A DNA stretch of 64,000 nt from NCBI GenBank assembly GCA_951406725.2, contig OX597819.1, positions 93,000,001 to 93,064,000 on the forward strand. The letters are read 5' to 3'. Both the position numbers and the translations under genes were made by a program. This document shows, piece after piece, positions 47,451 to 59,017 of the stretch. The stretch is from Octopus vulgaris (Eukaryota). Below the pieces are notes generated by a model. The model did not search any database. It saw nothing but the letters and a program-made list of their open reading frames with translations, and was not told the origin of the DNA. How positions within the stretch are numbered: position 1 is the stretch's first letter; each line of letters opens with the position of its first letter.

Positions 47451-47537
47451 ACTTCCGACACATGTTTCGAAGATTTCATTGATATTATTCAAAAGAATAA
47501 ATGGTATAAAACAATGCAATCTTCTCTTCAGGGAAGT
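47451..47537 (-). ncRNA. Type-I hammerhead ribozyme, canonical core, apparently intact
   Basis: ACUUCC | CUGAAGA | GAAGAUUGCAUUG...CAAUGAAAUCUUC (12 of 13 bp) | GAAA | CAUGUG | UC^ | GGAAGU. Perfect 6-bp stem I, GUC cleavage triplet. Confidence 0.85.
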
Positions 47538-48147
47538 TAAAAAATGAAACTCGTCAATACGACATTTTAACAGGAAATGATGGATATATATAGTGATTTA
47601 CTGAACGCTATTAATATTGTTTGAAAAAACGTTATGTGATATAGCGTCAGAAGTAGCCTATAGAAAGAGGAGGAATATTTTTAGCGATTGTCAAATATAA
47701 AAGAAAATTAATATTAAAATTATATATAATGATAGAGATTGCTTATATGAACTAAAGGTGTGTTTTTGCCAATGTTTACATCCGTATGCACACTCTATAA
47801 CCGTGTTTACTAGGGGATTTTTAGAAAAAAATAATGAAAAATAATGAAAAATTACAGAGAAGACAGAATTCCTTACCTTTGTCATAAGGTATCGAGATTG
47901 AGAGATTCAACTAAATTTAATTGTTCATTGTGGTCTTTTAGATCCCAAATTAATTTACTGAGCCCAGTGTGTGTGTGTGTGTGTGTGTGTGTGTGTGTGT
48001 GTGTGTGTGTGTGTGTGTGTGTGTGTGTGTGTGTCTGTGTGTCTGTGTGTGCGTGTGTGTATGTGTGTGTGTGTACGTATTACGGAGAATTACTTGCATG
48101 GCGAGTAACCTGATCTGTGATCCTGTGCTGGAACGAAGCAATTGGAG

Positions 48148-48400
48148 CGTGAAAGGTGTTTATAAGCCATTTAAGAAACACACAAAAGCCAGTAGATTCA
48201 CTTCAATATTTAAATTTGATTTGCCAAAATATTTTCGTCGCTTTGAGACTGCAACCTGTTCACTGACAAAATTCAAAAAAGATGCAGCACGGAATGTTGT
48301 CAGTGAACAGGTCGTAGTCTCACGGCGAAGATATTTTGGAAAATTAAATTTAAACACGTTTTGCCTGTTTCCTAAGTGGTTTATAAACACCTTCCATGCT
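48148..48400. repeat. Imperfect palindrome (about 110-125-bp arms), inverted PLE terminal repeat
   Basis: AAGGTGTTTATAA...TTTAAATTT.ATTT.CCAAAATAT...CCTGTTCACTGACAA is mirrored at about 48292-48400. Confidence 0.85.
48221..48269 (-). ncRNA. Minimal hammerhead motif with swapped G3-C8 core pair
   Basis: UUGUCA | GUGAACA | G | GUUGC...GCGAC | GAAA | AUAU | UU^ | UGGCAA. A decayed mirror copy lies at 48297-48342 on the plus strand. Confidence 0.65.
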
Positions 48401-48429
48401 ACAATTGTTATATATATATATATATATAA

Positions 48430-49600
48430 TGAAAATTTACAAAAAAACAAAAACAAAAAGACGAAGACGGCTGTTTATTAGTTTAAGATGTATTAGTTTA
48501 ACGTTCGGGAACTGAGAAAGTCTTTTACGTTTCGAGTCTACGCTCTTCGATAGAAAGGAACACAGAAATTAACAGGGAGAGAAAATAGAAAATGTTTTAT
48601 GGCTAGCCATTTATCATGGCAAATGCCGGAGAGAGAGTTCACACAGGAGAGTTTGGAAGAAGGGATAATAAAGTAGCGGTCATGCCAAAACGAAGGTGCA
48701 CGTGCGTAGTATGTGAGAGCGTGTATATGTGTGTGGAAGAGGGCTGGTGACCTTGACGTGTGCGTGTATGCATATGAAGGTGTGTAGATGATGGTGTAGA
48801 TGCTGGGAAGTGGTCAGTGCTAGTGTGTGCTCTGGTGTGGGTGCTGGGAATTGGTCAGTACTAGTGTGTGCGGTGTTGGGGTATGGGGAAGCGAGAGTGG
48901 GAGAAACAATAATATGGTCTTAGGGATGTGGTGGGGTGGGGTGGGGTGTATAAGAATGGAGGGGTTGGAATGTGAAGGGTGGTGTTACGAGGAAGGGGAT
49001 AGCGATGAAGGGAGAGCCTAGAAGGGAGACGGCGGGTAGGACCGAAGAGAAGAAGTAGGTATGAGAAGAGAGGAAAGAGGAGGAGGGTTACATGAAGAGG
49101 GGAGGAGATTTGAGCCCAAGTGGCGCAAAGGAGCGAAGAGAGAAGATAAATCCTTGCTCACGGTGAAGACGTAATTCCGGTTGGCCCCTATGCAAGGACA
49201 ATCCGAACACAGACAGGTGTTTTGAAGAGTGATCGGTAGAGCGGAAATGGCGTTGCTGAGTCGTATGTCTCTGGCAAGGGCGGTGTGGATAGTAGTGAGA
49301 GCATATCCATGTAGGATGAAGTGGCGAGCCATGAGTTGAGACTGAGTCACAAAGTCATGGTTGTCACTGGTGAGCCTGCGTAGACGGAGGAATTGAGGAT
49401 AGGGGATGGAAAGCTTAGTGTTTTTAGGGTGAGAGGAGAAGAAATTGAGGTATGAGTGTGAGTTTGTGCGCTTGTAGTGGATGGAGTTGATGAGAGTGGA
49501 GTGATGAATATAATGACCAATATAATGACCGTATATTTCAGGAGTGGGACCAGTGAAACTTGAGAATATTTGGCCCTCAACGTAGCCAACGAAAAGATTC
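48430..49600 (-). mobile_element. Penelope-like retroelement 3' part (RT C-terminus, decayed endonuclease, terminal repeat with hammerhead-like motif at 48522-48557)
   Basis: SIHYKRTNSHSYLNFFSSHPKNTKLSIPYPQFLRLRRLTSD..F.......F..HGY is the PLE RT C-terminal signature. Internally deleted. Confidence 0.9.
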
Positions 49601-49624
49601 ACATACATATATACATATATATAT

Positions 49625-55956: not shown

Positions 55957-56335
55957 ACAACTCTGTCGCTTACGACGACGAGGGTTCCAGTTGATCCGAT
56001 CAACGGAACAGCCTGCTCGTGAAATTAACGTGCAAGTGGCTGAGCACTCCACGGACACGTGTAACCTTATCGTAGTCCTCGGGGATATTCAACGTGACAC
56101 AGTGTAACAAGGCTGGCCCTTTGAATTACAGGCACAACAGAAAACAAGAAGTAGGTGTGAGAGAAAGTTGTGGTGAAAGAGCACAGCAGGGTTCGCCACC
56201 ATCCCCTGCCGGAGCCTCGTGGAGCTTTAGGTGTTTCCGCTCAATAAACACTCACAACGCCCGGTCTGCGAATCGAAACTGCGATCCTATGACCGCGAGT
56301 CCGTTGCCCTAACCACTGGGCCATTGCGCCTCCAC
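55957..56335 (-). mobile_element. SINE group D variant
   Basis: Head GGAGGCGCAATGGCCCAGTGGTTAGGG...GTTTCGATTC; 3' body shared with 23711-24050. Confidence 0.85.
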
Positions 56336-56609
56336 AATGTACTGTAGATGTACTGTTTGTTTAAATTACGTATATGCATATGAGTTGTACTCACTGGATA
56401 AATACCAGGTACATTGAGTGATAAAGATGTATATATATTAAGTATGACGTATAGATGGTTGCCTTAATTTACTAATGTTTCTGCTGTGTATAAAAACCTT
56501 TATATTCAGTAGACAGCTATTCACAGTACCACTGAATATTCTATTAACCCTTTACTGTATATCGGAAGCAATAGACATTATATAGACATGAGACTGGCCG
56601 TAAGGTCGC

Positions 56610-56648
56610 GCCATTGATAAGGCCTATTTTGGCCGAAATGCGTCTGGT
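56610..56648 (+). ncRNA. Minimal hammerhead motif with U3-A8 core pair
   Basis: GCCA | UUGAUAA | GGCC-UAUUUU-GGCC | GAAA | UGCG | UC^ | UGGU. Confidence 0.6.
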
Positions 56649-57624
56649 CTTGCTACGCGCTATTGGGACGATTTCGTCTCCCTGCGATATATATTATGCT
56701 TTTAAACACAGCATGGCCATTTAAAGATACATGATACCACGGAACAAATACCACACTAACTTTCCTGTCAACAATATATGCGATAATATACATATGTTAT
56801 ATATATATATATATATATAAAAACATATTTGTATAAACTTTTACTGATACAGGATTTAAACAAGCTTACAGCGTATAAATAGTTAGACTTAAACTGAAAA
56901 GGGCACACCCACACAAAGGCACATGTATGTATCTGCAGGAGAGAGAGAAAGAGAGAGAGTGTGTGTGTGCATGTGTGTGTGTGTGCGTGTGTGTGTGTGA
57001 AAGTGCGTGGCCTTGTGGCCATGTTATCAGAGCCATTATCGTACAATGACCTACAATGATAACTATCATTGCTATTATTGTAGCAGTTAGAACTGAGAAT
57101 CATGCGAACTGAAACAGCTGTAAGTTGAGATTCTGCCTTTTTGTAAATAATTAATAAATGGTAATTGATGTAAATCAATTGTTATTCATCAATTGTATCT
57201 CCATTTTCTGTTTTCCTTGAATATTGATAAATTCTTGTTTATTTTTGTTCACTTATGAGCATTAACACCAGTGCTCATGATTAAGTATAGATAATACACC
57301 ACTGGATTCATTGCATAAAAGTATCCCTTCGATGGTTGCTATAACCTCTAAATTTAATTATATATATACATATATATATATACATATATATATACATATA
57401 TATATACATACATATATATACATACATATATATATATATATATATATATATATATATATATATATATATATACATATATATTTAAGTAGACAAATGAATT
57501 ATCTTATTACGGATAATTCGAAAGATAACCGATACCTGGGTAGCAAACTCACAACAGAAAGGGCACAGTTGAAGTTATGACCATAGGGCATAAATCCGTG
57601 CCTTAGTGCGGAAATTTGAAGTTT

Positions 57625-59017
57625 TATATATTAAGTATGGGAAAGAATGGAGATGAACGAAGATTTAACAAAATTCCTTTATTTTATTTTCGACATATGT
57701 TTCGAAGTCTGCAAAGTCCCTAATTAAAGAGTGTGAATGTATTCTGTATGACTGGTGTTTATATTTGATTTATTTTATGAATGAGTGCTCGAATGTATGA
57801 GTGTGTAAAATTGCCTTAATGTATGTGTGTGTTCGTCTTTGAATGCGTGAAAGTGTGTGTGGAATTCAGAGAGAGAGAGAGAGATAGCAAGAATTAACGT
57901 TCAAGAACTGAAAAGAATGTGTCTGTGTGCTCGAATGTGACAACTTAATAGGGAGATGGCGGCTACAATAGCAATGACAAGATACAAGGTTACTGTTGGG
58001 ATTGGTAGTAGTTCTTGGCAACTATGAGAAAGTCTCTCAAATTTTTTTAGGAAATCCAGGGGTTATCTATATTAAACTTCATTGGTATGAGAAAAAGGTA
58101 TGCTTTTTCCAGTGTGGGCATCTGAAAGAACGCTCCACAATCGAGTTTATTAGTCGGCCAAACAGAATATGAAAGAGTTCGGAATTACATATTCTGTTTG
58201 CCCGAGGCCGACTAATAAAGTCGATTGTGGAGCGTTCTTTCAGATGCCCACACTGGAAAAAGCATACCTTTTTCTCATACCAATGAAGTTTAATATAGAT
58301 AACCCCTGGATTTCCAAAAAAAATTTGAAAGGTGATACCTCATCCCTGTTAGTATAAAATACTTTCTCATAGTTGCCAAGAACTACTACCAATCCCAACA
58401 GTAACCTTGTATCTTGTCATTGCTATTGTAGTCGCCCTCTCCCTATTAAGTTGTCACATTCGAGCACACAGACACATTCTTTTCAGTTCTTGACCGTTAA
58501 TTCTTGCTATCTCTCTCTCTCTCTCTCTCTCTCTCTCTGCATTCCACACACACTTTCACGCATTCAAAGACGAACACACACATACATTAAGGCAATTTTA
58601 CACACTCATACATTCGAGCACTCATTCATAAAATAAATCAAATATAAACACCAGTCATACAGAATACATTCACACTCTTTAATTTTTCTATACCTTCCTT
58701 CTACTACCTTGATGCTGCCCTTGAACTATGTCAACGGACAATTTCTTCTGCTTTCATCCAATCTGCCGTCAACCCCTATAAATAGACATTTTTTATCATT
58801 ATTTTTATGGGCTCCTCGTGAGCAGTCGTCGAAAAGCGTGTTGTGCATTTTGTTGGAGAATTAAGTTCCTGGATTTTCCTGAAGAGAACGTTGCATAATG
58901 GACTCCTTAGTCACTCGGAATTAGGGACTTTGCAGACTTCGAAACATATGTCGAAAATAAAATAAAGGAATTTTGTTAAATCTTCGTCAGCTCCATTCTT
59001 TCCTATACTTAATATAT
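57625..59017. mobile_element. About 1.4-kb palindromic PLE remnant (inverted terminal repeats)
   Basis: Left arm 57625-58171 mirrors 58188-59017 around a 16-nt loop. The right arm encodes ILFARGRLIKSIVERSFRCPHWKKHTFFSYQ* (58191-58286; PLE endonuclease C-terminus-like) and has an extra segment at about 58685-58917. Confidence 0.85.
58873..58958 (+). ncRNA. Type-I hammerhead ribozyme, canonical core, apparently intact
   Basis: AUUUUC | CUGAAGA | GAACGUUGCA...UGCAGACUUC | GAAA | CAUAUG | UC^ | GAAAAU. Predicted cleavage after C58952. Confidence 0.8.

Follow-up and report, generated by a model that had tools for sequence, protein, structure and literature searches.

Within a 64,000-nucleotide (nt) stretch of the Octopus vulgaris genome (contig OX597819.1, positions 93,000,001 to 93,064,000 of the forward strand; hereafter, the window), four motifs in the 47-59 kb region appear, judging from sequence, to be hammerhead ribozyme folds on the ends of separately inserted, truncated repeats. 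Three of these repeats could be linked to Penelope-like elements (PLEs) and the fourth is presumably one too; the proximity of the four likely reflects only the abundance of such repeats. We assign this interpretation a probability of roughly 0.85. All four motifs are PLE-type minimal type-I hammerhead folds with predicted self-cleavage:

HH1, 47451..47537, minus strand: type-I fold with C3-G8 core CUGAAGA, C3 at 47531, stem III ACAUGUGU, predicted cut after C at 47457
HH2, 48221..48269, minus strand: type-I fold with G3-C8 core GUGAACA plus one extra G, G3 at 48263, stem III AAUAUU, predicted cut after 48227 with U at the cut site
HH3, 56610..56648, plus strand: type-I fold with U3-A8 core UUGAUAA, U3 at 56614, stem III AUGCGU, predicted cut after C at 56644
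HH4, 58873..58958, plus strand: type-I fold with C3-G8 core CUGAAGA, C3 at 58879, stem III ACAUAUGU, predicted cut after C at 58952

Each motif has an N3-UGA-N7-N8-A ... GAAA ... UH core with a Watson-Crick 3-8 pair, together with stems I and II, G10.1-C11.1 and an open end in stem I; in HH2, one additional G lies between A9 and stem II. Stem III can pair with itself, G-U pairs allowed, at 8/8 positions in HH1 and HH4 and at 6/6 in HH2 and HH3. A strict descriptor, which demanded a Watson-Crick 3-8 pair, G10.1-C11.1, a stem III able to pair with itself, at least 4 bp in stem I and at least 3 bp in stem II, returned four matches in the window, exactly HH1 to HH4, and among 200 block-wise dinucleotide shuffles, 198 gave no fold and 2 gave one. 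The four type-I folds located in a sequence-only reading of this DNA that preceded our analysis were thus recovered. The descriptor was fixed after the motifs were known, and a version requiring at least 4 bp in stem II missed HH4 (the motif at 58873). No Rfam hammerhead model reached its gathering score in the window, and none was among the best 150 of 195 matches at E ≤ 1; Rfam returned only microRNA matches driven by microsatellites (the window is rich in TA, CA and TATC repeats). Minimum free energy z-scores of the monomers were likewise weak (-2.1, -1.2, -2.2 and +0.7). Both results are what one would anticipate where stem III is nearly absent. Of the stem III loops first proposed, AAUAUU in HH2 and AUGCGU in HH3 stand, while in HH1 the register set by stem I gives ACAUGUGU, whose self-pairing includes two G-U pairs, and not ACAUGU. 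The extra G of HH2 had gone unnoticed, as had a decayed second G3-C8 motif (48292-48347, plus), a half motif (57679-57725) and two motifs of a U6 type, in which U replaces A at core position 6 (35430-35465, intact; 48513-48565, decayed).

Searches of the genome (2.8 Gb, 227 contigs) placed HH1 and HH4 in repeats with the following extents:

47377..47968, minus strand: HH1-bearing element, the 5'-truncated 3' end of a Hydra-type PLE, 89-91% identical to loci L074, L078 and L095
58189..59105, plus strand: HH4-bearing element, the 5'-truncated 3' end of a young Hydra-type PLE with a TA microsatellite at its end, 93% identical to locus L130
57452..58191, no single strand assigned: HH4-element pieces, inverted and rearranged, 87-96% identical to L130, with a 3' hammerhead half at 57679-57725 (minus)

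A first look found 2,516 candidate members of the HH1 family and 1,289 of the HH4 family, with best-hit identities of 92-96% and 97-98%, respectively. The C3-G8 pair was kept in 26 of the 30 best HH1-family matches (window copy included), and CUGAAGA in 29 of the 30 best HH4-family matches. Locus L130, to whose last 900 bases the window copy of HH4 is 93% identical, carries reverse transcriptase (RT) and C-terminal GIY-YIG frames upstream of its hammerhead and an inverted copy at its 5' end. Two HH1 copies (L095 and L087) are preceded, in the same orientation, by RT and GIY-YIG frames of a gene related to that of L130 (65% in RT), and pieces of both domains lie upstream, again in the same sense, in L074, L078 and L095. 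HH1 and HH4 are best described as sister families behind a putative Hydra-type RT/GIY-YIG gene. The L130 translation contains RWL (RWK-like), DKT, and CxxC and CxH around conserved E and N, and in these motifs and its TA targets the HH1/HH4 gene resembles the Hydra clade of C-terminal EN+ PLEs, as far as the parts consulted of Craig et al. 2021 (PMC8557442) describe it. It differs in the CxCX5C linker, which homologs P0001 and P0003 possess; the corresponding stretch of L130 is N-rich and no linker is visible in it. Of four octopus rows in the supplement of that paper, the two shown are Naiads. Among nine sequences of the HH1/HH4 clan, 12 cells in stems I and II changed on both sides, a value reached in 0 of 500 shuffles and compared with at most 6 in slid controls. 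A covariation check, as suggested in the sequence-only reading, yielded compensatory changes in both stems of this clan.

HH2 belongs to a different lineage, represented in the window by two arms:

48081..48275, minus strand: short G3-C8-family arm carrying the hammerhead and the tail in its longer form, 85% identical to the young autonomous copy L203
48280..48428, plus strand: inverted arm of the G3-C8 family, beginning at the family's preferred 5' end, with the decayed G3-C8 hammerhead at 48292-48347

Folding predictions join both arms into a single long hairpin, whichever strand is read (-154 and -135 kcal/mol). A 29-base pattern of the old subfamily, with positions 3 and 8 left free, had 2,234 exact matches in the genome; the 100 listed comprised 95 G3-C8, 3 G3-U8, 1 C3-C8 and 1 U3-C8. 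A young subfamily gave 941 matches, with G3-C8 in 99 of 100 listed, and differs from the old one in loop II while stem II is unchanged. Contigs from four public runs (three organism labels) showed no alternative letter at 3% or more at position 3 or 8. By these tallies, G3-C8 is a family-fixed state of the predicted ribozyme in the HH2 lineage, not private decay. Most copies are short, and none of 29 reached more than ~25 nt upstream, which had suggested a family lacking an autonomous partner until long copies with an RT/GIY-YIG gene overturned that view. The route to these copies began with 172 places anchored on the start motif, of which 100 were listed; 11 share an upstream stretch resembling an intron end (branch-point-like CTAAC, pyrimidines, AG), a form that this anchor favors. 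Copies with that stretch led to a decayed RT/GIY-YIG gene and from there to the young family. RT/GIY-YIG frames lie upstream of an HH2-type motif, in the same sense, in L194 and L212, the latter with 651 open codons. Endonuclease identity to L212 was at least 99.6% in 8 of 13 loci, and 11 of 14 loci found through the endonuclease had an HH2-type motif within the 1.5-kb flank, with the G3-C8 core intact in 10. A homolog search with a 151-amino-acid (aa) piece of the endonuclease gave no match. The HH2-family protein is only distantly related to that of L130 (E = 0.11), and the HH2 element is assigned to a putative Penelope-like family different from that of HH1 and HH4.

Three other views of the HH2 family were discarded. 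The long copies leading to an RT/GIY-YIG gene rule out a chance fold inside a miniature inverted-repeat transposable element. The family is not always palindromic: an earlier query had spanned the arm junction, and a one-arm query returned mostly lone copies. A Pfam GIY-YIG match in L197 was dropped as a link, being 1.3 kb upstream beyond unrelated sequence and barely similar to the HH2-family endonuclease. Separately, the young family (L199-L212) has near-identical endonuclease copies and open frames of up to 1,025 aa; because its 3' region of ~1 kb is rich in CATA repeats, the family may spread microsatellites. In one G3-C8 copy (L010), the 5' part of the hammerhead is repeated head to tail several times.

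Thousands of mini-copies of the G3-C8 family, 170-220 nt long, exist, with a preferred start ~22 nt before the core at a site resembling both a splice acceptor and an initiator (GAG precedes it in 10 of 27 contexts, AG in 18 of 27), and 3' ends at two places ~50 nt apart, adjoining (TA)n. In the young subfamily, 12 head-to-head pairs among 100 listed places are joined just upstream of the hammerhead. This start could reflect promoter-driven initiation in which the cap G was copied; a splice acceptor, by analogy with D. virilis Penelope, in which the sections consulted of PMC4209133 and PMC2377424 describe an intron ending at helix I; or a stop set by predicted pairing of the 5' stretch with the tail.

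The repeat around HH3 is older:

56427..56728, plus strand: HH3-bearing old repeat copy, 68-75% identical to L186/L183
55752..55944, minus strand: inverted piece of the HH3-family downstream tail, ~72% identical to L186/L183

Members of this clan are 65-85% identical to one another. A pattern with positions 3 and 8 free gave 17 matches including the window: 10 U3-A8, 3 U3-G8, 2 A3-A8, 1 C3-A8 and 1 C3-G8. Since U3-A8 is the majority state, the HH3 core is not private decay, and the family tallies as a whole support the earlier proposal that PLE families here have diversified their cores: the 3-8 variants are family traits. The relatives (L175-L190) have stem III palindromes of two types, 6-nt AUGCAU and 10-nt AUCACGUGAU, and AUGCGU in HH3 (56638-56643) is probably a private change because relatives have AUGCAU. 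Three further loci (L097-L099, matches to CUGAUGAGGCC) showed no alignment to the HH3 region and were excluded from this tally. All three are near-identical, of the form CUGAUGA-GGCC-loop-GGCC-GAAA, and lie ~94 kb apart on contig C11, possibly within a large tandem duplication.

A Penelope-like origin, claimed at the outset for all four motifs, therefore holds for HH1, HH2 and HH4, where one frame with RT and C-terminal GIY-YIG lies upstream of the hammerhead (L130, L095, L087, L194 and L212), and is only presumed for HH3. The RT/GIY-YIG assignment draws on motif reading, on homologs (among them one named RT-domain protein; one linked protein has its best named homolog in Octopus vulgaris, at 58%) and on an atlas lead, with GIY-YIG in 15-18% of the members of two near clusters.

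The setting of the four motifs is consistent with independent insertion into a repeat-dense background. In 40 evenly placed 10-kb stretches from contigs C1-C8, the strict descriptor found 11 folds, alongside one U6 fold, in 400 kb, and none in 10 shuffles of those stretches. Extrapolated, there is one strict fold per ~36 kb, or roughly 77,000 (38,000-138,000) in the genome, and the probability of at least four per 64 kb is 0.10. At this density, the cluster is a dense patch and not a unit. The four insertions also differ in age, with identities to relatives of 97-98%, 92-96%, ~94% and ~75%; two lie on each strand, and none is accompanied by a member of its own family in the same orientation. 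A 5' truncation with an adjacent inverted partial copy is seen at HH2, HH3 and HH4 and at many other family loci. Head-to-tail tandem monomers were found neither in the window, where copies are lone or inverted, nor as short direct arrays among 100 listed old-subfamily places. The HH3 and HH4 window copies carry private changes. The motifs had been described as a panel, and it had been suggested that many self-cleaving motifs could lie in introns. Independent insertions of differing age on both strands, against a background of 11 folds per 400 kb, do not support a panel, and an intronic setting finds no support either: Pfam detected no host exon in the 148 longest of 277 filtered frames (cut-off, 67 aa), which is not proof of absence, the only scoring feature being a long interspersed nuclear element (LINE) at 60.6-63.2 kb. 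The neighboring 10 kb on each side shows repeats. Short interspersed nuclear elements here have an octopus-like appearance.

Several observations weigh against this interpretation. The probability of at least four folds in a given 11.5 kb is 0.0003; a Poisson model predicts ~79 stretches of this kind across the genome. All 12 background matches were C3-G8, so three different 3-8 pairs side by side are rarer still and the arrangement is not wholly ordinary; we speculate that shared TA targeting, combined with the way the window was selected, explains the mixture. Pfam reported no RT or GIY-YIG match on the linked frames L130, L194 and L212. No frame or tblastn match (four query proteins) lay within 1.5 kb of the 17 old HH3-type copies, which is why the Penelope origin of HH3 is presumed. 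Two of the five covariation measures did not clearly exceed the shuffled values (57/500 and 483/500), and the nine sequences are related, with kinship uncorrected. Tallies made from best hits or fixed patterns favor similar copies.

Based on these observations, we propose that an element-encoded protein nicks TA-rich DNA and begins copying its own RNA inside the tail behind the hammerhead. Premature stops would be frequent, as would the addition of an inverted piece, and lone ends with a hammerhead would remain. Selection on the 3-8 pair would act only in the parent elements, in which stem III may be completed by two copies in a tandem transcript or by the element protein; if any Watson-Crick 3-8 pair suffices, each lineage could have fixed its own. 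Lone copies in the window, having no same-family, same-strand partner, are likely silent, and the hairpin formed with its inverted twin would trap HH2. Beyond this, we tentatively entertain the possibility of an active Penelope-like family with a natural G3-C8 core, a co-adapted U at the cut site, protein-aided cleavage in vivo and mini-copies resembling short interspersed nuclear elements that arise from a fixed point before the ribozyme.

The U6 type is represented at three places in the window, one of them with a further stretch upstream:

35430..35465, plus strand: minimal hammerhead fold of the U6 family, core CUGUAGA, intact; outside the range originally described
48513..48565, minus strand: decayed U6-family hammerhead, G5 changed
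19361-19406, plus strand: U6-family site, a hammerhead family with CUGUNGA core
49021..49638, minus strand: stretch upstream of the decayed U6 motif, no Pfam match; the same layout occurs in L142

A 31-base U6 pattern had 17,012 exact matches in the genome, and among the 100 listed, U6 was found in 96, C3 in 99 and G8 in 96, with position 7 taking all four letters. This could be the commonest hammerhead-like motif of the genome, and CUGANGA searches cannot find it. From motif likeness, 49021..49638 is a putative PLE RT C-terminal fragment, 22656-23168 (minus; no Pfam match) a Tc1/mariner transposase-like fragment, and L133:1439-2060, just beyond the right end of the window, a putative Penelope-like endonuclease fragment. 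The last is in line with a repeat-dense region. The LINE at 60602-63151 (plus) has AP endonuclease and RT domains by Pfam and a frame broken near 62630. Flanks and random stretches hold more hammerhead families (L060:247-277, L041:1040-1095, L064:526-627, L137, L144 and L149), among them a second U3-A8 type with the palindrome ACCGGU.

An alternative hypothesis, which we consider unlikely but deserving of attention, is that G3-C8 and U6 motifs have ceased to be ribozymes, with the fold retained for protein binding or RT positioning while the core drifted. In the parts consulted of the study of the anole element PAc (Poseidon of Anolis; Frangieh et al. 2024, PMC11167929), insertion in vitro is independent of cleavage, the anole element lacks reads ending at the cut site, and the mutant C3G/G8C gives only partial rescue; here, the AAUAUU duplex is barely stable (-0.2 kcal/mol) and most copies retain the whole uncut motif. 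Drift of this kind is difficult to reconcile with two subfamilies that keep the pair-restoring double change, G5, G12, GAAA, a palindromic stem III and a non-G cut site, or with a U6 family in which N7 varies freely and positions 3 and 8 do not. By analogy with what the consulted parts of PMC3884650 imply, U17 in the G3-C8 family may also avoid a G3-C17 mispair.

More improbable is that families diversified their stem III palindromes under selection so that each dimerizes only with its own kind, as the sequence-only reading had suggested with a family-specific pairing code. The palindromes do vary in sequence and length (4, 6, 8 and 10 nt), and one related clan holds both the AUGCAU and the AUCACGUGAU types. 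Stem III of HH2 pairs with that of HH3 at only 2/6 positions, although their stems I cross-pair, and for other mixtures of equal length the count ranges from 3/6 to 7/8, at unfavorable energies. Mismatch is the default between different palindromes, however, and requires no selection. The stem III palindromes of HH1 and HH4 pair at 8/8 positions with -7.0 kcal/mol, compared to -6.0 for the HH1 and -7.0 for the HH4 homodimer; of the two mixed stems I, the one between the HH4 5' strand and the HH1 3' strand closes at 6/6 positions. With default mismatch on one side and compatibility between the two closest families on the other, nothing points to selection for specificity. In the portions consulted, published dimers are also proposed within tandem transcripts (PMC4209133, PMC6765202). 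That the host co-opted the cluster to cut or regulate an intron-containing transcript is very improbable: local density in the upper tail and four intact cores would fit, but no host exon emerged from the Pfam search, repeats flank the region, each strand carries two motifs lacking a same-family partner, and the HH3 and HH4 copies have private changes.

Much of the picture favored here, of hammerhead ends on separately inserted PLE copies, has precedent. Metazoan PLE pseudo-LTR hammerheads (Cervera and de la Peña 2014, PMC4209133) cleave weakly as dimers, with stems III and I of the double hammerhead both forming between partners (Fig. 1 of that paper). Already published there, in the portions consulted, are the coexistence of several families in a genome, the prevalence of lone copies from truncated elements, pairs on opposite strands, a short palindromic helix III, an extra base between positions 9 and 10.1, and U3-A8 families; natural U3-A8 appears also in PMC3088659, likewise consulted in part. 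The representatives in Fig. S3 of PMC4209133 include neither G3-C8 nor U6, for which its descriptors would not look; its consensus for the extra base is H where HH2 has G, and HH1 and HH4 differ in having a branched helix II of 50-60 nt. The small PLE hammerhead variants of Lünse et al., as cited in the part consulted of PMC6765202, combine a short stem III and PLE context, as here, with dimer cleavage. In PAc, according to the same parts of PMC11167929 as above, reverse transcription begins internally, at two sites of the RNA that lie behind the hammerhead, and the protein nicks AT-rich DNA and assists ribozyme cleavage, which is not needed for insertion in vitro. The HH2 family resembles PAc in its hammerhead followed by two alternative 3' ends in the tail and in its AT-rich targets; G3-C8 is a laboratory mutant there, whereas here a family of thousands of copies has it naturally. 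Non-LTR retrozymes, in what was consulted of PMC7229834 and bioRxiv 10.64898/2026.07.22.740005, are similarly short noncoding hammerhead units related to PLE ends, whereas the window copies are lone or head-to-head instead of head-to-tail arrays and start upstream of the hammerhead instead of at the cut site. A natural, family-fixed G3-C8 or U6 core was not found in the literature covered, which leaves out Lünse et al., Hammann et al. 2012, Arkhipova et al. 2017, and Przybilski and Hammann 2007.

While the cluster itself is ordinary transposon debris, it points to a single genome with natural family-fixed core variants (C3-G8, G3-C8, U3-A8 and U6), one of which is carried by a young element whose frame is open. 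These variants permit a direct test of whether Penelope hammerheads are selected for cleavage or for shape, and of whether the element protein relaxes the rules for the core. Since variant cores evade CUGANGA searches, such searches may undercount ribozyme-like motifs by tens of thousands in genomes of this kind. If the G3-C8 family is indeed active, then together with the 17,000-copy U6 family it would mean that protein-assisted hammerheads of retroelements evolve cores that standard searches miss.

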